Positions 2,734 through 50,534 are shown, numbered from the stretch's first letter. The stretch is 64,000 bases of DNA from Pseudomonadota bacterium (GCA_040752855.1 JBFMHP010000031.1:10340-74339), one strand, 5' to 3'. The notes: generated by a model not told the origin, from the letters alone. Numbers and translations: made by a program.

Positions 2734-3717
2734 ATGATGACCACGCCGACCCTCGAACTCACCTTGTGTATCCCCGATTTTCTGCGCGCCGAACTGGCGC
2801 TGGCGCAGGAATTGCCGCTGTTGCAACGCCTGCTGAGCCGGTCAGATCGCATGGAAGCCCGCACGGAAGGACATGAGCGCGCGCTGTTCGAGTTGTTTTC
2901 CATTGCATTGCCGCCGCAGCAGGAACTGCCGGTGGCCGCACTGACCTATGCCCTGGAGCATGGCGCGTCTGCCGACGGAATACTGTTGCGGGCCGATCCG
3001 GTATATTGCCGGGCCGATCAGCACAAGGTGGTGATGCTGGCCAACGATCTCGATCTCGCGCATGACGAGGCGCAACAGATGATCGCGGAACTGAATCGCC
3101 TCTTCGCCGAGGATGGCTGGGAGTTCAGCGCGCCGACGCCGCAGCATTGGTACCTGCGGCTGCCGCAGGCGATGGAGCTTGCCACCACGCCGGTCTCGCA
3201 GGCGCTGGGCAAGGATATTCGCACGCTGCTGCCACGCAGTGCGCAGGGCGCGATATTGCATCGCGCGCTGACCGAGATGGAGATGTTGCTGCACGCCAGC
3301 CCGACCAATCAGCAACGGCGCGTGGCGGGGAAATTGCCGGTGACCAATCTCTGGCTGTGGGGCGGGGGAGCACTGCCCCACGTCCCGAAGACCGAATGGG
3401 CGCAGGTGTGGAGCGACGACGTGCTGGTCTTGGCGCTGGCCAAGTTCACCCAGGTGCCGCGCTGCGCGGCCCCGGGCAGCGCCGGGCAGTGGCTGGAGCA
3501 GGCGGTGACGACTGGCAAACATTTGATCGTGTTGGCGCCGACGCAGGACGCGGCACACACCGAACGCGAATGGTTTGCAACGCTGGCTGCGGCGCTTAAA
3601 AGCGGCCGACTTAACGCGCTCACCCTGCGCCTCAACAATCATCATCGCTATCACATCACGCGCGGGATGCTACGGCGCTGGTGGCGGCGTGATCGTCCGT
3701 TACGGAGTTTCGTATGA
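2734..3717 (+). CDS. Conserved hypothetical protein (327 aa) translationally coupled to recJ
   Basis: Long ORF with normal codon usage and no recognisable catalytic motif. It contains an NLWLWGGG motif. Its stop overlaps the recJ start (ATGA at 3714-3717). Confidence 0.55.
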   Translation: MMTTPTLELTLCIPDFLRAELALAQELPLLQRLLSRSDRMEARTEGHERALFELFSIALPPQQELPVAALTYALEHGASADGILLRADPVYCRADQHKVVMLANDLDLAHDEAQQMIAELNRLFAEDGWEFSAPTPQHWYLRLPQAMELATTPVSQALGKDIRTLLPRSAQGAILHRALTEMEMLLHASPTNQQRRVAGKLPVTNLWLWGGGALPHVPKTEWAQVWSDDVLVLALAKFTQVPRCAAPGSAGQWLEQAVTTGKHLIVLAPTQDAAHTEREWFATLAAALKSGRLNALTLRLNNHHRYHITRGMLRRWWRRDRPLRSFV

Positions 3718-34128: not shown

Positions 34129-36222
34129 GTGACAACAGCGATAACAAAGACATTCCAGTACGGTAATCACACCGTGAAATTGGTGACGGGTGAGATCGCC
34201 CGTCAGGCAAGCGGCGCAGTAATGGCGAGCATGGGCGATACTACCGTACTGGTTACCGCTGTTGTAATGAAGGAAGCCGATCCTGGGCGCGACTTCTTCC
34301 CACTTACCGTGAACTACCAGGAGCGTACCTACGCTGCCGGTAAGATCCCGGGCGGCTATTTCAAGCGTGAAGGCCGTCCGACAGAAAAGGAAACGCTGAC
34401 CTCGCGTCTGATCGACCGTCCGATCCGTCCGATGTTTCCCGATGAATTCACCAACGAGGTTCAGATCATCGCCACCGTCATGGCGCTCGACCCGCAGATC
34501 GATCCGGATATCCCGTCGATGCTGGGGGCTTCCGCCGCCCTGATGCTCACCGGTTGCCCGTTCAACGGTCCCTTGGGCGCGGCACGCGTGGGCTACAAGA
34601 GTGGCCAGTATCTGCTCAATCCCACGGCCGCGGAGCTGAAGGATTCCGATCTGGATCTGGTCGTCGCCGGCACTGAAAGCGCTGTATTGATGGTTGAATC
34701 CGAAGCGAAAGAGCTGCCGGAAGACGTGATGCTCGGGGCCGTGGTGTATGGCCACGAGCAGATGCAGACCGCCATCCGCGCCATTCGTGAATTGGCCGCC
34801 GAGGCGGGCACCGTCTCCTGGAATTGGACCGCCCCGGCGAAGGATCTTGAGCTGGCCAATGCCGTCGCCCAAGCCGGCAAGGCCGATATCGCTGCGGCCT
34901 ATCAGATCCGCGTGAAGCAGGAGCGCTACGAGCGCCTGAGCGCGATTCGCCAGGCGATCACCGAAAAGCTCTGCCCCGCAGGGGCTGAAGCGCCGAAGTG
35001 GAGCCCGGAAGCTGTGCGCACCGCCATCGAGTCACTGGAAAGTTCCATCGTGCGCAACCAGATCCTCGAAGGTAAGCCGCGTATCGACGGCCGCGACACC
35101 AAATCCATTCGCCCGATCTCGGTCAAGACCGGCATCCTGCCGCGCGTGCATGGCTCAGCCCTGTTCACCCGCGGTGAAACCCAGGCCATCGTCACCATCA
35201 CCCTGGGCACCGAGCGTGATGCGCAAATCATCGACGCCATCGAAGGCGAATACAAAGACCCCTTCATGTTCCATTACAACTTCCCGCCGTATAGCGTCGG
35301 CGAGACCGGCATGGTCGGCAGCCCCAAGCGCCGCGAGATCGGTCACGGCCGCCTGGCCAAGCGCGGCGTGGCCGCCGTGATGCCTGCGTTGGAGAAGTTC
35401 CCGTACTCCGTGCGCACCGTCTCCGAGATCACCGAGTCCAACGGTTCGAGTTCCATGGCCAGCGTATGCGGCAGCAGCTTGGCCCTGATGGACGCCGGCG
35501 TACCGGTCAAGGCGCCGGTGGCGGGCATCGCCATGGGCTTGATCAAGGAGCCGAGCGGCTTTGCCGTATTGAGCGACATCCTGGGTGACGAAGATCACCT
35601 GGGCGACATGGACTTCAAGGTGGCCGGTACCGCCAACGGCGTCACCGCGCTGCAAATGGATATCAAGATTGACGGCATCACCAAGGAAATCATGCAAGTG
35701 GCCCTGGCCCAAGCCAAACAAGGCCGCCTGCACATCCTGGGTGAGATGGCCAAGGCGATCACCGCCCCGCGCGCCGATATCTCCGCCTTCGCCCCGCGCA
35801 TCACCACGATCCACATCAATCCCGAGAAGATCCGCGATGTGATCGGCAAGGGTGGGGCCACCATCCGCGCCATCACTGAGGAAACCGGCACCACCATCGA
35901 CATCACCGATGACGGCACCGTGAAGATCGCCGCCGTCGATGGCAACGCCGCCGCTGCGGCGCGCAAGCGCATCGAAGAGATCACCGCCGATGTGGAAGTC
36001 GGCCAGATCTACGAAGGTCGTGTCGCCAAACTGGCCGACTTCGGGGCGTTTGTCACCATCCTGCCGGGACGTGACGGCCTGGTGCACATCTCCCAAATCT
36101 GCGAAGAGCGTGTCGAGAAGGTCAGCGACAAATTGTCCGAAGGCGACATCGTCAAGGTCAAGGTCCTGGAGATCGACAAGCAAGGCAAGATCCGCCTGAG
36201 CATGAAGGCGGTCAACGCCTGA
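34129..36222 (+). CDS. pnp: Polynucleotide phosphorylase
   Basis: Two RNase PH domains, then KH and S1 domains. GTG start. 697 aa. Confidence 0.93.
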
Positions 36223-36250
36223 TCTCCAAATCACATCTTAATTCACTAAA

Positions 36251-36271
36251 AGGGCCGCAAGGCCCTTTTTT
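36251..36271 (+). terminator. Rho-independent terminator after pnp
   Basis: agggcc-gcaa-ggccct followed by ttttt. Confidence 0.8.
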
Positions 36272-36286
36272 AATATCTTTCTCCAC

Positions 36287-36595
36287 TCAATCTATGCCGC
36301 GCGCTTTATCATAGGCATCGAACAGGATCTGCTCCAAGCTTGGGGTTGCGTCAATCGTTTTTGAATTGATGGCGATAGCCACGACGTAACCGTTGGGGTG
36401 GTGAACGATCAAGGTGCGTAAGCCGGTGTCGTCGAAATAATTCATCACACCGTTTAAATGAAACGCAAAGCTCCCGTTCATGGCGCTCGCTGAGGCCCAA
36501 CCGAGTTGATCATCGATTACCGAGCGATTGGCCGTTATTTGGTATGTACGTGGGGGATGAAAGTTTCGCGGGCGGTCAAGTGGTGGAAAAACCAT
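36287..36595 (-). CDS. Hypothetical small protein (102 aa)
   Basis: ORF only, with a weak SD. It lies at the edge of a lower-GC islet and no family is recognised. Confidence 0.35.
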   Translation of the reverse strand: MVFPPLDRPRNFHPPRTYQITANRSVIDDQLGWASASAMNGSFAFHLNGVMNYFDDTGLRTLIVHHPNGYVVAIAINSKTIDATPSLEQILFDAYDKARGID

Positions 36596-36791
36596 GGCAT
36601 GCTCATGCAGACCTCTATCAATAGGCTCTGAGCGTATTTCTTCGAAAGTTTAGTGCCGGCGGCCAGGATAGCAACCGTCCTGATGCTATGTGTGAACCGC
36701 TCGAATTGCTGTCATTCCAGTGGATGCCGGAATCCAGGAGACTCACCGAAGAGGAAAGCACCGGACTCTGGCATGCGCAGGGATGACGGTG

Positions 36792-36813
36792 TTAAGTAAG
36801 TGCCATTCAGGCC
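36792..36813 (+). other. Copy A of a shared motif, TTAAGTAAGTGCCATTC(A)GGCC
   Basis: 17 of 17 nt identical to 50828-50844 and followed by GGCC in both copies. See the findings. Confidence 0.6.
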
Positions 36814-36890
36814 TGGCTCGGACTAATCCCCCTTAAGACCAGCTCGGAGTCGGTGAGATACGAACTGTATGCTTTGAGTTCTAAGTGTTG

Positions 36891-37868
36891 TCACGGATTG
36901 TTGGAGGCGACCTCAGTTGCTTCTGTTCTGGTCGCAGGAATCCACTGTTTGATGTCGGTCGGCTCGTCTGATCTGTCGCGCGCAGCGGCCGCGCCGCTGT
37001 CCAATGGCGGCGATGCTACGATGAAACACTCATTTTCCGCATTGCAGATGATGCCCTGGTCGTCCCATGGCAATTGCTGATAAAAAGCAGTGCCGTTCAA
37101 GGCGGGATACGGATATTTCAAGATATCGAAGTACGGGGAGGTATCGAAGTCTTTTGGCAGGTACACGGCATTATTGCGATTGTATAGGCGCATATCCCCG
37201 AACTTCTCATGACGCACGATGGGGAGGATCGGATAATGAACCGCGGAAAATGCCGATGCAATCATTGATGAGCAGATCGTCTTGTCCGGGATGCCCAGCG
37301 TGTGCGCGTAGAGACTTGAGTGCCAACGCCGTGGGAGGATGCTAAGAGGTATGACAAAGCGCGCCAAGTCAAACATCTGGCGAAGATTGTAATCAAGCCC
37401 CAGGTGATCGATGACATGGCGGATGATTTTTTGCGCGTCCGTCTGTGTCAGTCCGCGCGGACGGCAGAGCCGCAAATGGTGGTGGCGGTATTTTTTCAGG
37501 GGGGAGATGACGGTGCCCCGGGTCAGCAGCGGTTCAATCAACAGCCGTTCATTTTCTTTAGCGGGGTAAAATTGCAGAATCCGCTCGCGCAGATCGGCGT
37601 CGTGAATATCCTTGAGTCGACCGATGTAGATTGCCGAATGTGACCAGATACTTTGTGTAACAGCCTTGATGAGTTTGCTGGCCCGGCTGTGGCCTTCTAC
37701 CAAGAGGACATCGCAAGGCCGGATCTCGACTAAGAGGCGTTTGAAGTCACACTGGTAACGAGGGATTGGCGTGCTTTCCTTGCTTAACCAGTGCACCAGC
37801 CATTGCCGCAGCATGGATTTTATCTCCATGCCATTCCGAGTTTTATTATTCAATGTTCCCGTTTTCAA
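36891..37868 (-). CDS. YiiX-like permuted papain-fold (NlpC/P60 superfamily, DUF830-like) protein
   Basis: The segment CDVLLVEGHSRASKLIKAVTQSIWSHSAIYIG resembles the YiiX/YebB pattern GDIIF...S..S..I..AT.S.YSH.G. The gene has lower GC than its neighbours, and the C-terminal ~60 aa may be over-extension. Confidence 0.5.
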   Translation of the reverse strand: MKTGTLNNKTRNGMEIKSMLRQWLVHWLSKESTPIPRYQCDFKRLLVEIRPCDVLLVEGHSRASKLIKAVTQSIWSHSAIYIGRLKDIHDADLRERILQFYPAKENERLLIEPLLTRGTVISPLKKYRHHHLRLCRPRGLTQTDAQKIIRHVIDHLGLDYNLRQMFDLARFVIPLSILPRRWHSSLYAHTLGIPDKTICSSMIASAFSAVHYPILPIVRHEKFGDMRLYNRNNAVYLPKDFDTSPYFDILKYPYPALNGTAFYQQLPWDDQGIICNAENECFIVASPPLDSGAAAARDRSDEPTDIKQWIPATRTEATEVASNNP

Positions 37869-38254
37869 TTTTAAGCACCCCAGTCATGAAATATACAGAG
37901 CCGCTTAGATCATTTGGGAAATGTTTCGATCCTGATAACAATAATGTTAGCCGTCAGAGTCATTTTTTCCATACGAAGAAACATATTCACAATTATTGAC
38001 TTTTACCTTCTTGCATCGCGCTGCCGATTTGGTTGGAACTGCGCTATGCGCTACCTAATTCGTCCTGACGTCTGCTCATGACAAGGCGGTGCGAATTTTT
38101 GTACCCGCATTGGTAGATCTTACGGCGGTGGTCTATATATCTAGTTGTCAGGCAAAAAGTATTGCCTATTTATCCTATAAAAATATCGGTATAAAACGAC
38201 ATGACGCAAGACGAGGAATCGCCGAACGAGAGCTTATTGCGCTTGTCACGGAGT

Positions 38255-39841
38255 ATGGACAAGCGCGCTTACATGATTTTTCTCGTGGCGATGCTATTCC
38301 TCACTGTGGTTGTGCTCGGCGCATGCGCTCAGGTGGCATTGCCGCCGCACGCCACGCCAGTTACGGTCGTGCCGCAGCGCGACTGGTCGGACGCGATCCT
38401 GTATTTCGTGTTGATCGACCGCTATGCCGATGGCGACCAGGGCAGCAATTCACGCGTCGATCGGCTCAATCCGGGTGCCTATCATGGCGGCGACCTGTTG
38501 GGGCTTGCGCGACAACTCGACGAGATTGCCGCGCTTGGAGTCACCGCGATCTGGATCAATCCAGTGGTCAAGCAAATCGATTCACCTGTATGGGCCCAGG
38601 GGCCGCCGGGCAGCGGTTGGGAGGGAGGCTTCGAGCATTGGGCTTTTCATGGCTATTGGGCGGAGGACTTCGAGCGTATCGAGCCGCATTTTGGCAGCGA
38701 GGCGCAGCTCAAGGCGTTGGTAGAGGCTGCGCGCGCGCGCGGGCTCAAGGTGTTGCTTGATGTGGTCTACAACCATCCCGGCTACGGTGCGCGTTATCTC
38801 ACTGATCCCGCCACACGTCACTGGCTGCGCGAGAGTCAACCCGATTGCGCGACGGATTCGCTGACCTGTCAAGTCGGCGGACTTCCCGATTTTCGCACCG
38901 AGCTTCCTGAGGTGCGTGAGTATCTGTTTCGCGCCCATCTGGGTCTTGCCCAGCGCATCGGTGTCGACGGCTTTCGTCTCGACACCGTCAAGCATGTCGA
39001 GCATGACTTCTGGCGGGCGCATCGGGCGCGCAGCCGCGCCGAGCTTGGTACTTCGTTCTTCCTGCTCGGCGAGGTGTGGGGCGGCTCGTACGAAGTCCTA
39101 GAGCCTTGGTTTTCCGGTGACGAGCTGGATGCCGGATTTGATTTCACCTTTCGGGGCAGCTGTCAGGGATATGTCGAAGGTAAAGGACGCACGATCGCGT
39201 ACGCGGCGTACTTGAAAAAACGCCACCAGGTGCGCGCGGGTTATCACCTCGCGCACTACCTGTCATCGCACGATGAACCCATGTTTCTGCACGAGCTCGG
39301 CAATGACATCCAGAAGTTCAAATTATGCGCGGCGTTACAGATGACGAGCCTGGGGATTCCGGTGATCTATTACGGCGAGGAGGTGGCGCGGAAGGGCGGC
39401 GCGTGGCCAACCAACCGCGGTGACATGCCGTGGGGTGACCGCGCGATTGCGCCTGGCAACGGAGTGGCGCGCGATGAGAAGCTGCGCGAGTACTACCGTC
39501 AGTTGATCGCGCTGCGCCGCGCCCACCCGGCGCTGTCGCGCGGCGCCTTCCGCGAGCTTGCCACGGACGGCGATCTGCTGGTGTTTGCGCGCGAGGATCA
39601 AGCCTCGAACGACAGTGTGATCGTGGCGGTCAATCGCGGCGAAGCACAGGCCACCGCAACGGTCCCGCCGCCGTCGCGCTGGACCGAGGAAGCGGTGCGC
39701 GAGGCATTGAGCGGCGCACCGGCGGAAATCGATGACGGGCGGCTTGTTATCAAGACGCCGCCGCGCACCGCGCAGGTGTATGTGGTGGAGCGCAGAATAA
39801 CAGGGGCGATCCCATGGCCGACATTCGCTTCAAGCATGTAG
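38255..39841 (+). CDS. GH13 alpha-amylase family lipoprotein
   Basis: Signal peptide with lipobox (LTVVVLGAC) and GH13 regions: DAILYFVLIDRYADGD, GFRLDTVKHV, LLGEVWGG, YLSSHDEP. The ORF-track start at 38201 was trimmed to ATG 38255. Confidence 0.85.
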   Translation: MDKRAYMIFLVAMLFLTVVVLGACAQVALPPHATPVTVVPQRDWSDAILYFVLIDRYADGDQGSNSRVDRLNPGAYHGGDLLGLARQLDEIAALGVTAIWINPVVKQIDSPVWAQGPPGSGWEGGFEHWAFHGYWAEDFERIEPHFGSEAQLKALVEAARARGLKVLLDVVYNHPGYGARYLTDPATRHWLRESQPDCATDSLTCQVGGLPDFRTELPEVREYLFRAHLGLAQRIGVDGFRLDTVKHVEHDFWRAHRARSRAELGTSFFLLGEVWGGSYEVLEPWFSGDELDAGFDFTFRGSCQGYVEGKGRTIAYAAYLKKRHQVRAGYHLAHYLSSHDEPMFLHELGNDIQKFKLCAALQMTSLGIPVIYYGEEVARKGGAWPTNRGDMPWGDRAIAPGNGVARDEKLREYYRQLIALRRAHPALSRGAFRELATDGDLLVFAREDQASNDSVIVAVNRGEAQATATVPPPSRWTEEAVREALSGAPAEIDDGRLVIKTPPRTAQVYVVERRITGAIPWPTFASSM

Positions 39842-40959
39842 CCAAGCGCTTCGGCGAGGTGAGCGTGATCGAGGATCTCAATCTCGAGATCGCCGATCAG
39901 GAATTTATCGTGCTGGTCGGACCCTCCGGCTGCGGCAAGTCGACCATTCTGCGCATGATCGCCGGGCTCGAGTCGCTGAGCGACGGTGAACTCTACATCG
40001 GCGATCGGTTGGTCAACGACGTGGCGCCCAAGGATCGCGACGTGGCCATGGTATTCCAGAGTTACGCGCTCTATCCGCACATGACCGTGCGCGACAACAT
40101 TTCCTTCGGTCTGCGCATCCGCAAGATGCCGCCGCAGGAGATAGATGTTGCGGTCAATGAGGCGGCCGGCATTCTGGGTCTGAATGCGCTGCTCGAACGA
40201 AAACCGAAGGAACTCTCCGGCGGGCAGCGCCAGCGCGTGGCGTTGGGACGTGCCATCGTGCGCAAGCCTGCCGTCTTCCTGTTTGATGAGCCCCTATCCA
40301 ACCTCGACGCCGAACTGCGCGTGCAGATGCGCGCCGAGCTGGGCAAGCTGCAAGATCGTCTCAGGACCACCACGGTATATGTGACGCATGATCAGGTCGA
40401 GGCGATGACCCTCGGCGACCGCATCGCCGTGCTCAAATCCGGCAAGCTCATGCAGGTCGGACGTCCGCTCGAACTCTATGACACCCCGCAGAACATCTTC
40501 GTGGCGCGCTTCATCGGCTCGCCCCCGATGAATATGCTGCGCGTAGAGGTGGCCGACGACGGCCGCAGCTTGCAGCACGCCGTCTTTACCGTCCCGGTGC
40601 CGGAACGGTTACGCCAGGCGGTTGCGCCATACCGCAACAAAACCGTGGCGCTCGGCATCCGCTCGGAGCACATCGGCGAGGCGGGGCGGCAGGATTGGCG
40701 GTTGTCCGTGGAGCTCGATGGAGTCATCGATATCTTCGAACCGCTTGGGCACGAGATCATCGTGCACGTGCGCAGCGGCGAGGAACGCATCCTTGCCAAG
40801 TTCGAGGCGACCCGGCTTCCGGTGATGGGGCAGCAGATCCGGCTGGCGCTGAATGCCGATAAGATTCACCTTTTCGATGCGCAGACTGAACAGCGCTTGA
40901 GCGAAGCATACAGTAACGATGCACACGAGGAGCGTAGCCATGAAACGAAATCCGCTTAA
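39814..40959 (+). CDS. malK: Sugar ABC transporter ATP-binding protein (MalK/UgpC family)
   Basis: Walker A (GPSGCGKST), signature (LSGGQRQRVALGRA), Walker B (FLFDEPLSNLD) and a C-terminal TOBE domain. Confidence 0.88.
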   Translation: MADIRFKHVAKRFGEVSVIEDLNLEIADQEFIVLVGPSGCGKSTILRMIAGLESLSDGELYIGDRLVNDVAPKDRDVAMVFQSYALYPHMTVRDNISFGLRIRKMPPQEIDVAVNEAAGILGLNALLERKPKELSGGQRQRVALGRAIVRKPAVFLFDEPLSNLDAELRVQMRAELGKLQDRLRTTTVYVTHDQVEAMTLGDRIAVLKSGKLMQVGRPLELYDTPQNIFVARFIGSPPMNMLRVEVADDGRSLQHAVFTVPVPERLRQAVAPYRNKTVALGIRSEHIGEAGRQDWRLSVELDGVIDIFEPLGHEIIVHVRSGEERILAKFEATRLPVMGQQIRLALNADKIHLFDAQTEQRLSEAYSNDAHEERSHETKSA

Positions 40960-42175
40960 AGTGTTATTTGGTTCGATGATCGCAGCGGTGTTGCTGGGCG
41001 GTTTCGTTACGCAGGCCGTGGCCGAGACAACCGCGCTCACCATTTGGCATGCCTATCGCGGCGCGGAAAAGGCGGCGTTCGAGCGTGTGATCGCCAGTTA
41101 CAACAAGCGAGCGAAGGGCGTGGAGGTAACCACGCTGGCGGTGCCCTATGATGCCTACGCCGACAAGATCACCGCGGCGGTGCCGCGCGGCAAGGGGCCG
41201 GATGTGTTCATCTTCGCACAGGATCGGCTCGGCGGCTGGATCGAAGGCGGCGCGACCGTCGAGCCGATCGACTTTTATCTCGATGAGCAAACCCGCAATC
41301 AATTCCTGCCGAGCATGCTCTCGGCGATGACCTACCGCGGCACCGTGTACGGCCTGCCGCTCAACTACAAGAGCATCACGCTCATCTACAACAAGAAACT
41401 CGTGCCCACGCCGCCGAAGACATCGGGTGAGCTGGTCAAAATCGCCAAGGGGCTCACCAATGCGGCTGTCGGCAAATTCGGACTCGCGTACGCATACAAC
41501 GACTACTATTATCACGCCGCGCTGCAGAATGCCTTTGGCGGACGCGCATTCGATCCCGGACCGAAGCCGGCGCTCAACGCGCGCGAGAACATTGCCGCGA
41601 TGCAGCTGCTGCTGAAGTGGATGGGCAAGGATGCCATCGTGCCGGCGGAACCATCGACGGCGCTCATCACTTCACTGTTCAATCAAGGCAAAGCGGCCAT
41701 GGTGTTTTCGGGGCCGTGGTTCCTCGGCGAGATCGCGCCCGAGATTGATTATGGGCTTGCGGTGCTGCCGACCATCGACGAGGCCGGCGGCCAGCCGATG
41801 CGCCCCTGGGTCACGATAGAAGGCGTGTATGTGTCGGCCAGTTCCCAACACAAGGAAGTCGCGTATGATCTCGCCAAGTACCTGGTCTCGGAGGAGGCCG
41901 GACTGGTGCTCGCGGTCGAGGGCCGCCAGCTGCCCTCCAACAAGGCCGTGTACACACACAAAGAGGTGTCCGAGGACAAGGTGCTCTCCGCCTTCCGTCG
42001 CCAACTCGACACCGCGATCCCGATGCCAAATTTCGCCGAGATGACGGTAATGTGGTCGCCGGCCACCACCGCGATGAACACCATCGTGCGCGGTGCCGCG
42101 CCCCCCGAGGTTGCGCTGGAGAAGGCCCAGCGCTCGGTTGAGAAAGACATCGCCGCGCTGAGGAAGGGCAGATGA
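40940..42175 (+). CDS. malE: Maltose/maltodextrin-type ABC substrate-binding protein
   Basis: Signal peptide (MKRNPLKVLFGSMIAAVLLGGFVTQAVA) and MalE-like family-1 SBP sequence. GAGGAG SD. Confidence 0.8.
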   Translation: MKRNPLKVLFGSMIAAVLLGGFVTQAVAETTALTIWHAYRGAEKAAFERVIASYNKRAKGVEVTTLAVPYDAYADKITAAVPRGKGPDVFIFAQDRLGGWIEGGATVEPIDFYLDEQTRNQFLPSMLSAMTYRGTVYGLPLNYKSITLIYNKKLVPTPPKTSGELVKIAKGLTNAAVGKFGLAYAYNDYYYHAALQNAFGGRAFDPGPKPALNARENIAAMQLLLKWMGKDAIVPAEPSTALITSLFNQGKAAMVFSGPWFLGEIAPEIDYGLAVLPTIDEAGGQPMRPWVTIEGVYVSASSQHKEVAYDLAKYLVSEEAGLVLAVEGRQLPSNKAVYTHKEVSEDKVLSAFRRQLDTAIPMPNFAEMTVMWSPATTAMNTIVRGAAPPEVALEKAQRSVEKDIAALRKGR

Positions 42176-44142
42176 GACTGCGCGCTCACCTCACACAGCC
42201 GGTCGCCGTGGGCCTGTTGCTGGCGGCGTTGGCCGGTGTGTTGCTGAGCGCATGGTTCCTGGCACAGGCCCAGGACGCGGTGCTCGCCGAGCGCCAAGAG
42301 CGCGAGGTGATGATGCAAGGCATGGCGTTTGCAGAACTGGTGGCGGCGCTGGAAACGGCGGAACCCGACAGCGGCGCAGCGCGTATTGCTGCGCTTACGA
42401 GCGCATGGGCTGCGCGTTTTCCCGAGATCGTGACGCTGCGCGTCGTGCGCAGCGCCGACGCCCGGTTGCTCGCTTCGACCGACGCGCGCGATGCGCCGCC
42501 GTTTCCACGCCGTCTGGCGCGTGAGGAGAAACCGCTCTATGACCTTGGTCAGGAGTTGCGCGCCAACGTCGAGACCAACCTCGCGGAAGGGGTGTTTCGT
42601 AAGAAGCAGATCGATGTCGTCCGCCTCGACCAAACCCATTTGCGCGTGGCGGCGCCGTATTCGGTGGCGGGCAATGTCGTTGGCTTTGTTCAGATCGAAC
42701 AGCGTGTGGCGGCGCCCGTGCCGCCCTCGGCCGCGGGCAAAGCGGCGCTATTGATCGCCATGCCGCTGGCGTTGTTTCTGTTCGGAACCTGGTTTTTGCC
42801 GCGGCGTACGGACGCGGGTCGGCCCTGGGTCCACTATGGCATTGCATTGCTGCTGCTTGGTGTCACGTTGTATGGTCAGGCGCGCATCGGTCTGGGCGAA
42901 CTTGGTACGCGCGAGGAAGGGTACGCAGCGGAACTCGCGCAGCACTATTCTTCGATCCTGCGTGAATTTCAAACCGCCGCCAGCGCGCACGGGATTGCGG
43001 TCGAACCGGTGAGGGAGAACCGCTGGGATGTGGATGAGTATCAACGCCCGCGCCTGCTCATCACCGGCGACGGCAGTCTGGACCGTGCGGTGTTTGCGAA
43101 GGAGACCGGTGCGCGTCACGATCGTTTGCGCAACGCGCTGTGGGGCAATGCCGCGCTCAGCGCGCTGTTGCTCAGCTTCGTGGCGCTCGGCTACGCGCGG
43201 CGCCTGCGCCTGACGCTGATCGAGCACCGGAGCGCCTACGCCTATGTGGCGCCGGCAATCATCGGTATGCTGGTGCTGGTGTTTTACCCGTTCGCCTACG
43301 GTGTGGCCTTGTCGTTCACCGACACCACGCTGTTCAATGAGAATCTGCCGCTGGGCGAGCTGTGGGTCGGTATGAAAAATTACCTCGCGATCCTCGGCGA
43401 CTTCCAGGTGCTGCGCAGCACCGAGGGCGGCTGGGTGGTGAACTACCAGAACTTCTACTGGACGCTCTTCATCACCGTGGCATGGACGGTGTGCAACGTC
43501 ACCATCGGCGTGGGCGTCGGTCTGCTGCTGGCGTTGGCGCTCAACACCAAGGGGCTGCGCTTTACCAACGTCTACCGAGTGTTGCTGATCCTGCCGTGGG
43601 CGATCCCCAATTACATCACCGCGCTCACCTGGCGCGGCATGTTTCACAAACAGTACGGTGTCATCAACCAAATAATCCAGATGTTCGGCGGCGAGCCGGT
43701 ATCGTGGTTCGACGATGTGTTCACCTCGTTTCTGACCGGCATCGCCACCAACGGTTGGCTGAGTTTTCCGTTCATGATGGTGGTGATCCTGGGCGGCTTG
43801 CAGTCGATCCCGCAGGATGCCTACGAGGCCGCGCGCGTCGAGGGCGCCAGCCGCTGGCAGCAGTTCCGCCATATCACGCTGCCGTATCTGCGCCCGACCT
43901 TGATTCCGGCAGTCATCCTCTCGGTGGTGTGGACCTTCAATATGTTCAACATCATCTATCTGGTCTCGGGCGGCGAACCGGCCGGCTCCAACGAGATCCT
44001 CATCACCCAGGCGTACAAGATCGCCTTCGAGAAATATCAGTACGGCTATGCCGCGGCTTATTCGGTGGTGATCTTCATGATCCTGCTGGTGTACGGCGTG
44101 TTCCAGAACCGCGTCACACGCGCGACGGAGGCGATCACATGA
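42172..44142 (+). CDS. malF: MalF-like ABC permease with an N-terminal extension of about 340 aa
   Basis: The C-terminal half is a typical MalF/G-type TMD carrying the EAA-like loop. The N-terminal 340 aa hold three extra TM helices and a ~170-aa predicted periplasmic domain. ATGA overlap with malE. Confidence 0.8.
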   Translation: MRLRAHLTQPVAVGLLLAALAGVLLSAWFLAQAQDAVLAERQEREVMMQGMAFAELVAALETAEPDSGAARIAALTSAWAARFPEIVTLRVVRSADARLLASTDARDAPPFPRRLAREEKPLYDLGQELRANVETNLAEGVFRKKQIDVVRLDQTHLRVAAPYSVAGNVVGFVQIEQRVAAPVPPSAAGKAALLIAMPLALFLFGTWFLPRRTDAGRPWVHYGIALLLLGVTLYGQARIGLGELGTREEGYAAELAQHYSSILREFQTAASAHGIAVEPVRENRWDVDEYQRPRLLITGDGSLDRAVFAKETGARHDRLRNALWGNAALSALLLSFVALGYARRLRLTLIEHRSAYAYVAPAIIGMLVLVFYPFAYGVALSFTDTTLFNENLPLGELWVGMKNYLAILGDFQVLRSTEGGWVVNYQNFYWTLFITVAWTVCNVTIGVGVGLLLALALNTKGLRFTNVYRVLLILPWAIPNYITALTWRGMFHKQYGVINQIIQMFGGEPVSWFDDVFTSFLTGIATNGWLSFPFMMVVILGGLQSIPQDAYEAARVEGASRWQQFRHITLPYLRPTLIPAVILSVVWTFNMFNIIYLVSGGEPAGSNEILITQAYKIAFEKYQYGYAAAYSVVIFMILLVYGVFQNRVTRATEAIT

Positions 44143-45020
44143 AGCGCGCCACCAGCGACCAGAAACAGCACGTGCTGCTCCACCTGGTGCTCATCAGTTT
44201 CACGCTGCTGGCGATCTATCCGATCCTGTGGGTGCTCACGCTGGCGTTCTCCGGCGGGCAGAGTCTGGTAGTCGTCGATCTGCCGGCGGAGCCTGGGTTT
44301 CTCGACCGTGTGCGCAGTGTGCTGCCCTGGCCCGAGACGGTGTCGCTGAAAAACTTCGCCGATGTGTTGATCGACGAACCGTTCGGCCGCTGGCTGTTCA
44401 ACAGCGCGATCGTCGCCGGCGCCACCACCTTGCTCGGCGTATTCCTCGCCTGCACCGCGGCCTATGCATTTTCGCGCTTCCGTTTCCCCGGGCGGCGCAC
44501 CGGCATGATGATGTTTCTGGTCTCGCAGATGTTCCCGGGCACGCTGATGATGGTGCCGCTGTTCATCATCATCGTGAAGTGGCTGCATCTCGGCAACACC
44601 TATCTAGGTCTGGTGCTGGTGTACGCGGTGACTTCGATCCCGTTCTGCGTGTGGATGCTCAAGGGTTACTTCGACACCATCCCGATCGAGATCGAGGAAT
44701 CGGCGATCATGGACGGCGCCTCGCCGGCGACGATCTTCTTTCGCATCATCCTGCCGCTGGCCAAACCGGCGGTTGCCGTCACCGCGCTGTTCTCGTTCAT
44801 GACCGGCTGGAACGAATTCATCCTCGCCTCGATTTTCATGGAGGAGGAGACCGCCTACACCGCACCAGTCGGGCTGCGTTTCTTTGTTGGCGGGTTTTCC
44901 GCGCAGTGGGGCTATTTTGCTGCCGGTTCCATCATTGTTTCACTGCCGGTAGTGGCGCTGTTCTACTACCTGCAAAAGTACCTGATCGCCGGGCTCACCG
45001 CCGGCGGGGTGAAGGGGTAG
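44139..45020 (+). CDS. malG: MalG-like ABC permease
   Basis: MKRATSDQKQHVLLHLVLISFTLLAIYPILWVL... Six TM helices and an EAA motif region. ATGA overlap with the malF stop. The 552-aa ORF listed at 43362 is this gene plus a spurious upstream extension. Confidence 0.85.
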   Translation: MKRATSDQKQHVLLHLVLISFTLLAIYPILWVLTLAFSGGQSLVVVDLPAEPGFLDRVRSVLPWPETVSLKNFADVLIDEPFGRWLFNSAIVAGATTLLGVFLACTAAYAFSRFRFPGRRTGMMMFLVSQMFPGTLMMVPLFIIIVKWLHLGNTYLGLVLVYAVTSIPFCVWMLKGYFDTIPIEIEESAIMDGASPATIFFRIILPLAKPAVAVTALFSFMTGWNEFILASIFMEEETAYTAPVGLRFFVGGFSAQWGYFAAGSIIVSLPVVALFYYLQKYLIAGLTAGGVKG

Positions 45021-45099: not shown

Positions 45100-45912
45100 A
45101 TGTGTAGCAAACGAACGACGTTGTTGGCGGCCGCAGTGGCCGCATTGATGGCGGGGCCGGTGGCCGCGCAGACCGTCACATTCACAGACCCGACCGGCGA
45201 CGATAAGGGGCCGGGCAACTATGCCTATCCCACCGATCCAGTGTATACACCGGGATCGTTTGACTTGACGGAATTGTCGGTTGAAACCAAGGGCGACAAT
45301 GTCACTTTCAATACCAGCGTGGCAACCAAACTGGAAGATCCCTGGGGAATGGGTGTGGGCTTTGCGGTGCAGATGATGTTCATCTTCATCGACACCGACC
45401 GCAAGGAGGGTAGTGGACACACTGAAGGATTGCCAGGTCTCAATATCAAATTCGATCCGAAATTCGCCTGGGACAAGGTGGTGATTCTCTCACCGCAGAA
45501 AAAGGCGCGGGTCGACAGCGAAGTGCGCAGCAAGGCTGAGGCGTTGGCTGCAGATATCGTAGTGCCCGCACGTACCACCGGACGAGGCAAGACCATCAGT
45601 GGCAAGGTGAAGTTGAGTGAACTTGGCGGCGGTGACCCGGCAAGCTGGGCTTACCAGGTTGTGGTGCAGTCCAACGAGGGTTTTCCAGCCAAGACCGATC
45701 TTTTGACTCGCAAGGTCAATGAATATGAGGGCCAGCATCGCTACGGTGGCGGCAACGATGGGGATTGTGATCCCCACGTGATGGATATCCTCGCGGGTAA
45801 GGGCAACGGGGCTACCGAGGAGGTCGAGCTGCAACACCAGCAGCTTAGCTATGAATGCGGTGAAGGCGGTGAGAGCGTGAAGATGGCAACACTCAAGATG
45901 GTTACCAAATAG
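45100..45912 (+). CDS. Secreted protein, paralog A, carrying a conserved DPTGDDxGPGxYxYP domain
   Basis: Signal peptide (MCSKRTTLLAAAVAALMAGPVAAQT). Its N-terminal ~115 aa align with the protein at 48184 and end at a shared AWDKVVILSP / AWEKAVILTP block. Confidence 0.7.
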   Translation: MCSKRTTLLAAAVAALMAGPVAAQTVTFTDPTGDDKGPGNYAYPTDPVYTPGSFDLTELSVETKGDNVTFNTSVATKLEDPWGMGVGFAVQMMFIFIDTDRKEGSGHTEGLPGLNIKFDPKFAWDKVVILSPQKKARVDSEVRSKAEALAADIVVPARTTGRGKTISGKVKLSELGGGDPASWAYQVVVQSNEGFPAKTDLLTRKVNEYEGQHRYGGGNDGDCDPHVMDILAGKGNGATEEVELQHQQLSYECGEGGESVKMATLKMVTK

Positions 45913-46010
45913 TGATGAGGTTGTAGCAAGTGAAGAGTAGTCCACACATTTAACCGCGGGATCGGCTCGACCAACGAGGCAGCACACCCGCAACAGGAGG
46001 ATAGTTCGTC

Positions 46011-48110
46011 ATGTCTAGCAGAATCAGAACAAGCCGCATTGCAGCGGCGGTGGGATCGGCACTCATGCTCCCAAGTCTGGGGAGTGCCGCGGAGATTGGT
46101 GAAATGCGTTGGTCAGGCAGTGTCTATGCCAAGTTTCTGGATGGTAATCGAAGGCTGGAGAACGGTCTTTACGGCAATTCGGAACAAGGTAACGGCGACC
46201 AAGGGCAAGGGATCGAATTTGAGCTGCTATTCGAGAATCAGGTCTCCAAGCAGGTCGAAATCGGCGGCCGGCTCTCGTCTCGTTTCAATAAGAACTACTG
46301 GTCCAACTTTGGTGGTTTCGGGGCCCAGGAGGAAGATGAACTCTCGGCGCAGTATATGAAGATGCGTGGTGCGTGGGCCCGGTTAACACCGGGTTATGAA
46401 TGGCTCGATTCGGCCCATATCGGCTCGCACGACTTCGGTCTGTTCGATGCATTTACCATGGGCAAGTATCGCTATATCGATCGCGATAATGCCTCGGGCA
46501 TCATTCTCCAGGGTTCAGCGCAGGACGATAAACTGCGCTGGGACCTGGCACGCCAATCTTTGCCACGGCTGTTCGCCGGTCCGCGGTTTCGCACGGATAA
46601 CGGAGACTCATTTGCCTTGCAGGCGCAGGATTCTGCCTGGGCCGGCCAGATCAAATATGCCTACACCCCGGAGATGAATCTCGGCGTGATCCTCGAACAT
46701 ATCAGCGACAACGAAGTGGAATCCACCGAAGACGATACCCGTGATGGGCAGAGCACCTCCAATCGCTACAACAACACCGTGCTCGGGCTCAAAGGCGATT
46801 ACAGCGCCGGCGGTCCAGTCGATGTGCGGGCGGCCGTTTATCGTTCCGAGATCAATATCCGCGATAACGTCTGCGATGGCAGCCTCAATGGCAACTGCCG
46901 CTTCAGCCCGACGGTACAGGATGATGCCACTGACACGGCCGTCACCCTTGATCTCGATTTCAACGATACCTTCGCCGAAGGACTGACGTTCAATGTGCAA
47001 CTGTTTCGCATCGGAGCAGACTTCCAATCGGTGCTAGCCACTCGACGCGAAGCCGACGTGCTGCGCACCGAAGGTCGTGAGGGCAGCTGGGGATGGAGTC
47101 GGCCGGACTACAATTTCGGCAACCGTGCCAATGCCAACTCCCAGGCGGGTATCGGCTATGGCGGCTGGAATGGGACGGCACAGCAGGTGGTCTCGCTGAT
47201 GGCCGACAACGACTTCACCGACTTTGACGAGACCATGGCCGAGAGCGTGATCGGCTGGCAGGGCATCACGATCGTGCCGAAGTGGATGCTGGGCGACTGG
47301 GAATGGTCTGCGGAATACAGCTATATCGATTTCGATACCAACTGGCAGGCCTGTGGTAAGGCAACCAAGGCCGAATGTATCTACAATCGCCAGGACGGCA
47401 TCCACAGCTGGGGGTTGGGAGGGGACTTCCGCTCCCCCTACGCACCCTATCAGGAAAAGACCCTGCAGATCTTCGCCCTTCACGCCGCGAAGGCTCTGGA
47501 CATCGGCACTGGTCTCGATGTTAGTGCACGGTTTAAGTATATCCATGATGAAGATGATCGGCTGACGGACAACAGCAAGCTCGCCGATGCCTATGATGGC
47601 TATCCTGATGCGGCCTTTGCGTTGAATCTAGACTGGTTGGCGCTGCCTGGGGCGCAGACGGCGGTAACCAGTGTGAAGGATGATGATCGTGAGGCGGATT
47701 ATTACACGTTGGGCGCCTCAGCGGGTTATCAGGTAACCCGGGATCTTTACGGACGCGTGGTTTACGAGTACCAATATGTTGATTTGGTCGACGGCACGAC
47801 CAACGTGGCGCCGGTTGGGATGGGCTTTGAAGTCAGCAATGACTTCGGCTATGCGGAGTACCTTACCGGTACTCACAGAAAGCACAAGATCGCCTTTCAG
47901 CTCTCATATTTCCTGTCCGGGGTTGAAATCGGTGCCGATATCCAGTGGTTGATTGGCACCTATGATCCGGAGTTCCGCGCGGGTAGCGGTCAGACGGTGC
48001 AGCGTACCGCAGACGGCAGTGCTGTGATTACCCCGCTGGGCAACATCGAGGTGGATGAGGTCGACTTGAAGCACTATCGGATGAAGGCCTTTATGAAGGT
48101 AAAATTCTAG
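46011..48110 (+). CDS. Large outer-membrane beta-barrel protein (699 aa), family unknown
   Basis: Signal peptide (AAAVGSALMLPSLGSAAE), alternating amphipathic beta-strand-like sequence rich in Y/G/D/N, and a C-terminal Phe (KAFMKVKF). Confidence 0.65.
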   Translation: MSSRIRTSRIAAAVGSALMLPSLGSAAEIGEMRWSGSVYAKFLDGNRRLENGLYGNSEQGNGDQGQGIEFELLFENQVSKQVEIGGRLSSRFNKNYWSNFGGFGAQEEDELSAQYMKMRGAWARLTPGYEWLDSAHIGSHDFGLFDAFTMGKYRYIDRDNASGIILQGSAQDDKLRWDLARQSLPRLFAGPRFRTDNGDSFALQAQDSAWAGQIKYAYTPEMNLGVILEHISDNEVESTEDDTRDGQSTSNRYNNTVLGLKGDYSAGGPVDVRAAVYRSEINIRDNVCDGSLNGNCRFSPTVQDDATDTAVTLDLDFNDTFAEGLTFNVQLFRIGADFQSVLATRREADVLRTEGREGSWGWSRPDYNFGNRANANSQAGIGYGGWNGTAQQVVSLMADNDFTDFDETMAESVIGWQGITIVPKWMLGDWEWSAEYSYIDFDTNWQACGKATKAECIYNRQDGIHSWGLGGDFRSPYAPYQEKTLQIFALHAAKALDIGTGLDVSARFKYIHDEDDRLTDNSKLADAYDGYPDAAFALNLDWLALPGAQTAVTSVKDDDREADYYTLGASAGYQVTRDLYGRVVYEYQYVDLVDGTTNVAPVGMGFEVSNDFGYAEYLTGTHRKHKIAFQLSYFLSGVEIGADIQWLIGTYDPEFRAGSGQTVQRTADGSAVITPLGNIEVDEVDLKHYRMKAFMKVKF

Positions 48111-48183
48111 TTCGTAAGAAATGAACGAGGCCGAGTCAGATTCGGCCTCGTTCTTCTCCAAGTCAAAAAGTGGCAGGTAGTGT

Positions 48184-49344
48184 TTGATGCAATTGCTGAG
48201 GCGTGTTGTGCGACCGGGAATATTCATAGGGCTGTTGGTATGTGACGTTTGTCTTGGCGCCACGGGTATAGAGATCGAGGATGTTCGCGGTGATGATGTC
48301 GGTGCTGGCGGCATCGTCTATCCCGATCGTGATGACTTTGCGCCAGGGGATCTGGATCTAGTGTCCTTTGCTGCGGAGCCCGCGACAGACGGTGTGTGGT
48401 TCGAGGCGAGTTTTGCAAACCCCATCCGCTCCCCGCGCGGCCGTGTTGTTGGTCTAGGACCCGAGCCCGTGGATCGATATGCCCGACTCGGGTTCTACAC
48501 CTTTAACCTTGATATTTACATCGACCAAGATGGTATTGTGGGCTCGGGCAACACCGCCACCGTTCCGGGGCGACAAGCGGCAGTGGATACCAGGTATGCT
48601 TGGGAGAAGGCGGTGATACTTACGCCGCGGCCCACCGAGGCCCGTACTTTGCTTGAGGGGTACTTCGAACGCACCCTGGAAGAGCAGAAAAGGGCGGTAG
48701 AGGGCCGGGTGAGTGCCGAAGAACTCGCCGCAATCAGGGCTTCGGTCAAGGCCCGCGTGGGGGATGCCTTCTACTTTCCCAGCGATGTGCGGGTACAGAA
48801 GCAAACGATCCGTTTTTTCGTCCCGGCGAGTTATCTGGGTGCAGGGTTCAATGAATCATGGCGTTACGTTGTCCTCGTCACTGGAGCCGAGATTGAACAA
48901 AACATGCACCTCATCGGAAAATCATCTCAAGGTTTTACGCTGATGATGATGCCGGTCTCAGTTGGAAGGCCACGCGACCGCTTTGGCCTGCAACGCGATG
49001 CCGACGGTGGTCAGCCGCCGATCGTTGATTTGCTCACACCAGAACCCGGGTTGCAGCAGCGGATTCTCTCCAACTACAACATCGTAACCGGACAGTTGGC
49101 AACATTACCTGGCGTGCCTTCAAAGGCTATCAAACCTGAACCTGGGCCAGGCCGCACATTCACGCCTTCACCTAGAGAGTCAGACATTGATGACCTGCTC
49201 AATGCGTCGCCCGTACCGGCGCAACAGTCCTCCGGGCGTAGTATCGCGGAACGGTTACGAAACTTAAACCAGCTCAAAAATGAAGGGCTAGTCAGCGATG
49301 AAGAATATAAACAGCTGCGAGAGAAAATACTCTCGGAGATCTAA
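48184..49344 (+). CDS. Secreted protein, paralog B, with the same N-terminal domain plus a C-terminal SHOCT domain
   Basis: Signal peptide, N-terminal domain homologous to the 45100 protein (GDDVGAGGIVYPD...RYAWEKAVILTPRP), and a C-terminus matching the SHOCT pattern (ERLRNLNQLKNEGLVSDEEYKQLREKILSEI). Confidence 0.65.
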   Translation: MMQLLRRVVRPGIFIGLLVCDVCLGATGIEIEDVRGDDVGAGGIVYPDRDDFAPGDLDLVSFAAEPATDGVWFEASFANPIRSPRGRVVGLGPEPVDRYARLGFYTFNLDIYIDQDGIVGSGNTATVPGRQAAVDTRYAWEKAVILTPRPTEARTLLEGYFERTLEEQKRAVEGRVSAEELAAIRASVKARVGDAFYFPSDVRVQKQTIRFFVPASYLGAGFNESWRYVVLVTGAEIEQNMHLIGKSSQGFTLMMMPVSVGRPRDRFGLQRDADGGQPPIVDLLTPEPGLQQRILSNYNIVTGQLATLPGVPSKAIKPEPGPGRTFTPSPRESDIDDLLNASPVPAQQSSGRSIAERLRNLNQLKNEGLVSDEEYKQLREKILSEI

Positions 49345-49473: not shown

Positions 49474-49968
49474 GTGGGTAATCGCACCGTGTCGTTTGTC
49501 CATGCAGCCCAACGCAGTCCGGTGCAAAACGTGGCCAACATTCTCCAGCTAAAACCCCGTGTCATATTCGATAAAACTATCACCATTGTCTTCGGCGTGA
49601 TCCTGGGGTTTATCACGCTGGCGATGATACTGGGCGTGGTTCAGTTGTTTTACAACTTGCTGGAAATCTTCATCAAGCCGGACGCCGCAGCACAGTATCA
49701 TAAGATGATTTCTCATATCCTGACCCTGTTCATCCTGGTCGAGCTGTCGCGCTCACTGGTGGAATATTTCGATACCCACATGATCAAGATCACCTTCATT
49801 ATCGATGCTTCCCTGATCTTCGTGCTGCGGGAGATCATGATCAATCTTTTCGAACAGAAAGTAGGCACAGGAGAGATTTACGCGCTCAGCGGCTTGCTGC
49901 TGGTCATCGGCATTTTGCGCATCGGTGCTGTTTGGGCACAAGTGCATGTGGCCAAACAACCCAGCTAG
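49474..49968 (+). CDS. PsiE-like small membrane protein
   Basis: Four predicted TM helices and a LFILVELSRSLVEYF segment. The gene has lower GC than its neighbours. Confidence 0.4.
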   Translation: MGNRTVSFVHAAQRSPVQNVANILQLKPRVIFDKTITIVFGVILGFITLAMILGVVQLFYNLLEIFIKPDAAAQYHKMISHILTLFILVELSRSLVEYFDTHMIKITFIIDASLIFVLREIMINLFEQKVGTGEIYALSGLLLVIGILRIGAVWAQVHVAKQPS

Positions 49969-50534
49969 TGTTCTGATTGGTTATTTTTTCGGTTAAGGTA
50001 TCGATGCACAAGCCAGACGAGCAGACCTCCCACCCCGATCGCGGCGAACAGCTCTGCTTCGTAGTGCTTCACCTTGCCGATCCATGCCTCGAAGGCCTGA
50101 CCGAATAAGTAACCGAGCAGTCCGACACACATAGCCCAGAGCAAGGCGCCTAAGATGTTGAGCAGGATGAAGCGCAACGTTGGAACTCTGCTCATGCCCA
50201 ACACGAATGGCGTTATCGTGCGCAGGCCATACAAAAAACGGAATCCAAGGATCAGCGCAAATTGATGGCGCTCCATGAGACCGAAGACTGTAGACGCCTT
50301 GGGTTTCCATGCGGAATGACTTTCCAACCAGTGCTGGCCGCGCAAGCGTCCCAGAAAGAAATAGAGCTGATCCCCGCACCAGGTTCCGAGAAAGGCGGCG
50401 AGGATCACGCCCTGCAGATTCAGATACCCAAGATGGGCGGCAAGTCCGCCCAATATGAGAATGGTTTCACCCTCCAGGAAGGTGCCCAGTAATATGGCCA
50501 GATAGCCATAATGTTCTATGAAGGATTGCAGCAT
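49965..50534 (-). CDS. dedA: DedA/SNARE-associated family membrane protein
   Basis: YGYLAILLGTFLEGETILILGG...LGRLRG and the family's G-rich loop motifs. Confidence 0.8.
   Translation of the reverse strand: MLQSFIEHYGYLAILLGTFLEGETILILGGLAAHLGYLNLQGVILAAFLGTWCGDQLYFFLGRLRGQHWLESHSAWKPKASTVFGLMERHQFALILGFRFLYGLRTITPFVLGMSRVPTLRFILLNILGALLWAMCVGLLGYLFGQAFEAWIGKVKHYEAELFAAIGVGGLLVWLVHRYLNRKNNQSEH

Follow-up and report, generated by a model that had tools for sequence, protein, structure and literature searches.

Two Glucodextran_C proteins and a large beta-barrel as the candidate outer-membrane end of an alpha-glucan uptake system

Introduction

The entry of starch-derived chains through the outer membrane is understood for only a few designs, namely LamB, CymA and SusCD. 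The locus considered here lies in a stretch of 64,000 nucleotides (the window) on a 76-kb contig from a Pseudomonadota metagenome-assembled genome (GCA_040752855.1 JBFMHP010000031.1:10340-74339), where the three plus-strand genes between positions 45100 and 49344, counted from the first letter of the window, encode protein A, a 699-aa beta-barrel and protein B. They close a cluster of eight genes in the order GH13 lipoprotein, MalK, MalE, MalF, MalG, A, barrel and B, and they are considered here as the candidate outer-membrane end of an alpha-glucan uptake system.

The locus resembles the mal system of Escherichia coli (LamB, MalM and MalS with MalEFGK2) in combining an outer-membrane channel, here a putative one, with an exported amylase and a MalEFGK-type importer, and in encoding accessory periplasmic proteins of unclear role beside the porin gene. 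The barrel is nevertheless not a member of the LamB (PF02264), OprB (PF04966) or CymA families, having no Pfam match and about 22 strands as against 18 or 14, while A and B are unrelated to MalM (no PF07148 match) and the MalF homologue carries a different N-terminal extension. In the SusC/D/E/F/G system of Bacteroidota, too, a GH13 lipoprotein is encoded together with a barrel of 22 strands and with beta-sandwich proteins that are not catalytic. The present locus, however, lacks the TonB plug, the TonB box and any SusD-like protein, its A and B are not lipoproteins, and an ATP-binding cassette (ABC) importer serves the inner membrane. In keeping with this, the barrel shares the strand count of TonB-dependent transporters and SusC but has no Plug or TonB_dep_Rec match. 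Barrels of type V secretion have either 12 strands, as in autotransporters, or 16 strands with POTRA domains, as in Omp85 proteins, and the present barrel, with about 22 strands and without a hidden Markov model (HMM) match to POTRA, Autotransporter or Omp85, belongs to neither. In TonB-dependent transporters, LptD-LptE and MtrB-MtrA, the lumen or periplasmic mouth of a large barrel is occupied by a domain or partner, as is proposed for the present barrel, and the plug of TonB-dependent transporters is fused N-terminally, as is the A-type domain in the natural fusions P0377 and P0395 described below. The barrel has weak fold matches that include MtrB and BtuB, but no sequence relationship with these plug- or partner-in-barrel complexes. 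By analogy, the module would work like the LamB/MalM/MalS, CymA and SusCDEFG uptake devices, yet it lies outside each of these families.

The domain that makes up most of A and B, Glucodextran_C, belongs to the DOMON-like superfamily, is CBM9-like, and occurs on alpha-glucan enzymes of the GH15, GH57, GH65, GH49 and GH13_49 families (PMC10074034; PMC11239784). For a GH65 enzyme, kinetics suggest recognition of the alpha-glucan chain by its Glucodextran_C domain (PMC10074034). Domain C of the GH15 glucodextranase of Arthrobacter globiformis (1UG9/1ULV) shares with A and B the DPxGDDxGPGxYxYP and AW(D/E)K hallmarks and the HMM match, and it is matched by A in sequence and by B in fold. The glucodextranase domain is, however, the C-terminal appendage of a secreted enzyme of a monoderm, whereas A and B are stand-alone exported proteins of a diderm whose genes are tied to an outer-membrane barrel, with an invariant C-terminal block in A and a helical insert and a SHOCT domain in B. 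The Glucodextran_C and SHOCT domains are thus already known and are named by automatic annotation. A literature search found no description of the gene cluster, of the barrel family or of stand-alone Glucodextran_C proteins in diderms, and the module as a whole appears to be undescribed.

Results

Proteins A and B are homologous exported proteins

A and B align with each other by BLASTP at 82.8 bits (E=1e-22, 29% identity over 284 columns), and comparison of profiles built from 32 A orthologues and 39 B orthologues gave a probability of 99.7 and E=3.9e-27 over 226 columns (A 10-235, B 13-288). At these E-values a chance likeness is ruled out and, as both N-termini are signal-peptide-like, the description of the two as paralogous exported proteins in a first-pass annotation of the window is upheld, with B being an ancient paralogue of A. 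Both open reading frames lie on the plus strand at the coordinates stated there, and the motifs on which the comparison had been built are present in the translations (TDPTGDDKGPGNYAYPTD in one protein versus RGDDVGAGGIVYPDRD in the other, KFAWDKVVILSP versus RYAWEKAVILTP, and the C-terminal LKNEGLVSDEEYKQLREKIL). The family suggested there is the correct one: both proteins match PF09985, the 'C-terminal binding-module, SLH-like, of glucodextranase', far above its gathering threshold of 22 bits, with A scoring 194.7 bits (model 3-216 of 228) and B 117.2 bits (model 3-226 of 228). The proposed link of A and B to glucans is supported by genomic context, namely the maltodextrin-type ABC and GH13 operon to which they belong. 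The only part of the earlier description to fall is that the two proteins diverge completely beyond about 115 aa. Homology spans the whole domain of about 230 residues (PF09985 matches at A 27-253 and B 30-308), with a second half that is diverged yet homologous and is broken in B by a helical hairpin, one of the inserts that this protein carries.

Protein A consists of a signal peptide, predicted to be cleaved between ...AGPVAA and QT, and a single Glucodextran_C / DOMON-like beta-sandwich domain. With E=1.6e-19, its sequence matches domain C of the Arthrobacter glucodextranase (1UG9/1ULV, chain residues 779-930). No PDB sequence is matched by the C-terminal half of A, whose homology is seen through HMMs only. 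The mean column identity in the orthologue alignment (n=32) is 71%. Two cysteines, C223 and C253, are invariant among the orthologues, which fits an extracytoplasmic protein, and M84, M92 and H213 are invariant as well. A further invariant block, QSNEGFP...NExEGQHRxGGG.D.CDP, sets the A subfamily apart and is absent from B and from glucodextranase. The possibility that A or B is a lipoprotein was ruled out by the lack of a conserved lipobox in either alignment (A n=32, B n=39).

Protein B begins at ATG 48187 in the NCBI annotation (385 aa) and at TTG 48184, one codon earlier, in the open reading frame listing. Its orthologues have canonical AxA cleavage sites and no conserved lipobox cysteine, and the cysteines in the signal region of the window protein are not kept among them. 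The AlphaFold2 model of B has a mean predicted local distance difference test score (pLDDT) of 84 and places the helical-hairpin insert within the Glucodextran_C domain. The sole significant PDB fold match of this model is 1UG9 (Foldseek E=1.3e-12), followed by NxrC as a weak second match with a probability of 0.10, and nothing relevant in the PDB is found by sequence.

The Glucodextran_C domain of B is followed by a disordered Pro/Ala/Gly-rich linker and by the C-terminal SHOCT domain that the first-pass annotation had recognised. The window copy covers the full PF09851 model (1-28 of 28) with a score of 22 bits, which is under the gathering score of 27, but a match at E<=0.01 is found in all 39 aligned B orthologues (best 1.4e-8), and SHOCT is therefore accepted for B at the level of the family. 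The combined PF09985 and PF09851 architecture is common to B orthologues, most of which carry a precomputed PF09851 match, and two helices (354-366 and 372-384, pLDDT ~95) close the model of B after the disordered linker. The helix pair is basic and amphipathic. As a short, two-helix amphipathic module at the C-terminus, behind a flexible linker, it resembles other SHOCT domains (PF09851); it differs in its extracytoplasmic setting in a signal-peptide protein, as the published ideas on function deal mainly with proteins that are cytoplasmic or that lie inside the cell close to the membrane. A test of SHOCT for oligomerisation was negative (PMC3581485), and membrane anchoring has been proposed for intracellular, cytoplasmic SHOCT proteins (PMC11237479).

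The barrel and its partnership with A

The barrel protein has a signal peptide and the C-terminus ...MKVKF. AlphaFold2 gave one medium-confidence model of it (pLDDT 75, predicted template modelling score 0.79) with about 22 strands, in which the first strand starts at residue 33, right behind the signal peptide, leaving no N-terminal plug. Three long loops are conserved, L3 (140-161, with GKxRYIDRDN), L7 (335-415) and L8 (442-482), and their conservation of 0.80-0.84 is unusually high for predicted extracellular loops. The N-terminal third is the most conserved part of the protein, with the predicted short periplasmic turns T1 and T2 reaching 0.88 and 0.87. No known family was matched in Pfam by the window protein or its 39 orthologues, in NCBIfam, or in a phmmer search of the PDB, apart from a weak MtrB_PioB match in one orthologue (E=0.0047). 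Foldseek returned generic barrels only (AlgE, BtuB, maltoporin, MtrB, OmpM1 and SlpA), with TM scores of at most 0.36 and of 0.30 for maltoporin. The profile of the barrel family finds 228 representatives among 1.84 billion proteins, and the family is, as judged from sequence, small, isolated and outside every described family.

The relationship between A and the barrel is seen most directly in natural fusions. P0377 (877 aa; 106-2739 in L089 and L090, two independent contigs) and P0395 (959 aa; L091 2152-5031) are laid out as a signal peptide, an A-type Glucodextran_C domain with the NEYEGQHRFGGG motif, a Pro/Ala-rich linker and a barrel, such that the A-type domain sits at the N-terminus of the barrel in both. 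The two cysteines that are invariant in free A are replaced in the fusions, where CDPH becomes GDPH or ADPN. The genes of both fusions adjoin GH13 and GH15 genes.

Adjacency of the two genes also extends to clusters of other composition. In L092 and L093, barrels of 674 and 723 aa each have an A-type Glucodextran_C gene directly upstream, with a pullulanase and a GH13 gene as neighbours in L092, GH13 and GH57 genes in L093, and no ABC genes in view. The third gene downstream of the A-barrel pair (L092 8750-10195, 481 aa; L093 5905-7524, 539 aa) is homologous between the two loci (E=2e-35; motif PMYDDGT(N/H)GD..A.D.(V/I)WT...YKY.W...WTG.EEWPGN.R.LEL) and has no Pfam match in either. The candidacy of the L092 gene as a homologue of B was ruled out by an hhalign probability of 0.5 against the B family. 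A metagenomic locus, L088 (7195-12540), holds the eight-gene cluster with a 602-aa barrel and three Glucodextran_C genes, A and two B-like ones, of which only the last carries SHOCT. In L087, an A-type Glucodextran_C gene directly precedes a 662-aa barrel, and the contig ends at this A-type gene. Downstream of that barrel, a 364-aa protein (2904-3998) matches the T4 gp19 tail-tube family over its C-terminal 130 aa (PF06841, E=2.8e-28), which makes it an unexpected companion of a sugar module in the outer membrane.

Gene fusion and invariant adjacency across cluster types make a strong comparative case for a physical partnership of A and the barrel. They also support alpha-glucan as the substance with which both deal.

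Conservation of the eight-gene cluster

A scan with the barrel profile, using one genome per species, detected relatives in 369 species, and the survey covers the best 80 species loci. These represent at least six phyla and include Gamma- and Alphaproteobacteria, Acidobacteriota (Holophagae, Thermoanaerobaculia), Myxococcota (Corallococcus, Citreicoccus), Gemmatimonadota, Eisenbacteria and Syntrophaceae. By tblastn, the order GH13-MalK-MalE-MalF-MalG-A-barrel-B recurs in every sufficiently long locus among the 80. The median identities to the window proteins (Table 1) place A level with the MalK ATPase and with MalE. Conservation of this degree is unusual among free binding modules and is in line with several constrained interfaces.

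Sulfidibacter and, apparently, one Corallococcus locus are the only cases without B, as judged from non-overlapping tblastn assignment and gene calls, given that the B query also matches A. In the Sulfidibacter corallicola locus without B (L001 13697-20675), four phage-integrase-family genes follow the barrel gene. The contig L002, which is related to L001, also lacks B and has no integrases, so that the loss of B seems to be lineage-specific. Many loci of Acidobacteriota, Myxococcota and Eisenbacteria have a second GH13 gene immediately downstream of B and on the other strand, which is distantly related to that of the window (25-29% identity; L057-L084, e.g., L059 13223-14674).

The upstream GH13 and importer genes

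The five genes upstream of A lie on the same strand with short or overlapping junctions. The closest solved relatives of the GH13 protein are the Anoxybacillus alpha-amylase 5A2A (E=1e-62), cyclomaltodextrinase and neopullulanase. Its first ATG is likely too far upstream, and the true start is likely an internal methionine, Met19 or Met25. The lipobox LTVVVLGA-C is followed by alanine at +2, and this lipoprotein signal points to probable anchoring in the outer membrane. A crude regular expression detected a lipobox in 24 of 67 GH13 orthologues; LAGC/LAAC-type lipoboxes are present in many, and plain signal peptides in some of the alphaproteobacterial ones.

The importer is of the MalEFGK2 type (CUT1), with MalE, MalF and MalG as the best NCBIfam matches of the respective components. 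For the ATPase, UgpC ranks first (E=2e-144) and MalK second (E=7.5e-125). The binding protein matches NCBIfam MalE at E=7e-51, and its nearest solved chains are the maltodextrin/cyclodextrin binding proteins 1ELJ and 2ZYK. All three mal matches are under the equivalog cut-offs and thus indicate the family but not exact orthology. In the MalF homologue, only residues 398-651 match NCBIfam MalF. Its cluster-specific N-terminal extension comprises an extra transmembrane segment, a predicted periplasmic region of about 150 aa and further transmembrane segments, has no Pfam domain, and is kept across species, as full-length tblastn matches are found in many of the 80 loci. The extension could serve as a docking site for A, B or MalE.

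Layout of the locus and neighbouring genes

The features of the locus are listed in Table 1. NCBI names both A (MEW5756971.1) and B (MEW5756973.1) 'glucodextranase DOMON-like domain-containing protein' and the barrel (MEW5756972.1) 'hypothetical protein'. A ribosome-binding site, AGGAGG, is located 7 nt upstream of the ATG of A. The hairpin between the barrel and B genes has the arms GAACGAGGCCGA...TCGGCCTCGTTC, lies 13 nt past the barrel stop codon and 30 nt ahead of the B start, and is directly followed by TTCTCC on the plus strand. With a possible role in setting a lower dose of B, it could be either a partial terminator or an element that stabilises the mRNA.

Table 1. Genes and sequence features of the cluster, with positions in the window and median identities of orthologues from the surveyed loci
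Feature	Position	Strand	Evidence or detail	Median identity to window protein
GH13 alpha-amylase-family enzyme, exported, probable lipoprotein	38201..39841	+	Pfam Alpha-amylase E=8e-49	57.2%
GH13 lipobox region	38201..38330	+	lipobox with Ala at +2	
MalK-like ABC ATPase with OB/TOBE regulatory domains	39814..40959	+	Pfam ABC_tran, OB_MalK, TOBE_2	61.8%
MalE-like periplasmic maltodextrin-binding protein	40919..42175	+	SBP_bac_1 E=7e-38	62.2%
MalF-like permease, 656 aa, ~350-aa N-terminal extension	42172..44142	+	NCBIfam MalF E=1.3e-50	51.9%
MalF N-terminal extension, ~350 aa	42172..43230	+		
MalG-like permease	44139..45020	+	NCBIfam MalG E=4.9e-53	72.8% (highest in cluster)
Protein A, 270 aa	45100..45912	+	PF09985 E=2.1e-57	61.8%
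A signal peptide	45100..45168	+	aa 1-23	
A Glucodextran_C domain	45178..45858	+	aa 27-253	
Outer-membrane beta-barrel, 699 aa	46011..48110	+	AlphaFold2 model, ~22 strands	49.6%
GC-rich hairpin, perfect 12 bp	48123..48153	+	between barrel stop and B start	
Protein B, 386 aa (385 from ATG 48187)	48184..49344	+	PF09985 E=1e-33; SHOCT E=1.3e-4	40.2%
B signal peptide		+	aa 1-26	
B Glucodextran_C domain	48271..49107	+	aa 30-308	
B helical-hairpin insert	48631..48768	+	aa 150-195, AlphaFold2	
B disordered linker	49126..49239	+	aa 315-352	
B SHOCT domain	49249..49332	+	aa 356-383, PF09851	

Upstream of the cluster, the GC content at 36001-38200 falls to 0.515 as compared with about 0.60 in the flanks. 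This dip spans a minus-strand gene that weakly matches Peptidase_C92 (YaeF/YiiX), and it also contains an AT-rich intergenic stretch of about 330 bp upstream of the GH13 gene, which is presumably the promoter or regulatory region of the operon. No regulator gene was seen beside the eight-gene cluster in the window. Downstream of B (49474-50534) are a plus-strand gene of the phosphate-starvation-inducible PsiE family (E=1.4e-17) and a minus-strand gene for a multi-pass membrane protein that is DedA-like by eye alone, neither of which is kept beside the cluster in other loci.

Discussion

The reading of A, the barrel and B as the outer-membrane end of an envelope-spanning uptake system for alpha-glucans of the maltodextrin type is considered somewhat probable, and it is founded on the A-B homology, the family to which both belong, the eight-gene synteny, the adjacency of A and the barrel, and the natural fusions. 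In the proposed mechanism, the barrel would act as the outer-membrane channel for these glucans, and A would dock at its periplasmic mouth or in its lumen, where it would bind and grip the incoming chain or gate its passage. B would be held near the membrane or a partner by its long flexible linker and SHOCT pair and could provide a second, dispensable module for holding the chain or for tethering. The GH13 lipoprotein, presumably anchored in the outer membrane, would trim the chains to oligosaccharides, and MalE would hand these to MalFGK2. The binding of sugars by A and B, their placement in the periplasm or lumen, the part played by SHOCT and the function of the barrel as a channel are all predictions.

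Several points weigh against this mechanism. The original structural paper reportedly proposed cell-wall anchoring for domain C of glucodextranase, and the Pfam name reflects this proposal. The evidence for docking and sidedness is confined to fusion topology and conservation, and the conserved loops L3, L7 and L8 could just as well form a docking site on the outside of the cell. Since Sulfidibacter has no B, this protein is not essential to the module, and the exact substrate is not fixed by the ABC components, as these score under the NCBIfam equivalog cut-offs. Sugar binding has been shown for no Glucodextran_C member, and the domain is not a recognised carbohydrate-binding module (PMC10074034). 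The function of SHOCT is likewise not established, with the anchoring proposal having concerned cytoplasmic proteins (PMC11237479).

A more far-reaching version of the same idea is that the A-barrel pair, together with B or another third gene, represents an undescribed class of TonB-independent glycan translocon, in which a plug-less barrel of about 22 strands would be combined with a DOMON-like gate that grips the chain and is either separate from or fused to the barrel. Among such translocons, the MalEFGK-linked version, with the SHOCT tether of B and the periplasmic extension of MalF, may form a trans-envelope conduit for long or cyclic alpha-glucans. This generalisation is unlikely as matters stand.

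The first alternative, which is rather doubtful, is a Sus-like capture at the surface, in which A and/or B would be located outside the cell, perhaps after passage through or beside the barrel in the manner of autotransporter or two-partner passengers, and would bind starch-like polymers and feed them to the channel, as functional counterparts of SusD/E/F with SusC. The layout of P0377 and P0395, with a passenger, a linker and a C-terminal barrel, also fits the logic of type Va autotransporters, the degree of conservation in L3, L7 and L8 is as expected of a docking or binding site, and the GH13 lipoprotein has its counterpart in the SusG of the Sus system. A and B, however, have no lipid anchor or conserved lipobox, the extreme conservation of A across phyla is atypical of surface-exposed proteins, and the barrel, by its strand number and its lack of POTRA domains and of any Omp85 or autotransporter signature, is not a secretion barrel of a known kind. 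Topology also speaks against an external position, since the N-termini of barrels are periplasmic and the domains found there (the plug of TonB-dependent transporters, POTRA, the LptD jellyroll and the SLH domain of OmpM) are lumenal or periplasmic, autotransporter passengers being the exception.

A second alternative, which is doubtful too and ranks just below surface capture, holds that A and B are structural subunits that do not bind glucan but plug or gate the channel or tether it to peptidoglycan, with the link to glucans arising through the cargo of the channel only. The wall-anchoring proposal and the Pfam name point in this direction, a plug-less barrel of this size needs a seal, and the fold matches of the barrel include OmpM1 and SlpA, which combine an N-terminal wall-binding domain with a barrel. 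A CBM9/DOMON-like periplasmic sensor of peptidoglycan damage has reportedly been described as well. On the other side, the domain recurs on soluble GH15, GH57, GH13_49, GH65 and GH49 enzymes, the long conserved loops of the barrel could themselves supply the constriction, and the occurrence of Glucodextran_C in monoderms and archaea with quite different walls points to glucan as the common factor.

The weakest alternative, a haem-binding DOMON redox protein A with b-type haem as in cellobiose dehydrogenase, EbdC and NxrC, is highly improbable and was rejected: the family does fall within the DOMON-like superfamily, NxrC is the second fold match of B and M84, M92 and H213 are invariant in A, but these candidate ligand residues are not conserved beyond the A subfamily, the methionines being absent from B, from glucodextranase and from the A-type domain of the fusions, and the cluster holds no redox enzyme or lytic polysaccharide monooxygenase.

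If the uptake reading is correct, the locus would add to the few understood routes a different and strikingly conserved design that is carried by hundreds of soil, sediment and marine species of Acidobacteriota, Myxococcota, Gemmatimonadota and Proteobacteria. The barrel is a candidate new family of outer-membrane transporters, and the module offers a first extracytoplasmic setting in which SHOCT can be studied. Cultured carriers include Algicola sagamiensis, Corallococcus spp., Aerophototrophica crusticola, Acanthopleuribacter pedis and Sulfidibacter corallicola. The module would also allow a direct test of whether Glucodextran_C, an orphan 'binding module' on many alpha-glucan enzymes, does bind glucans.

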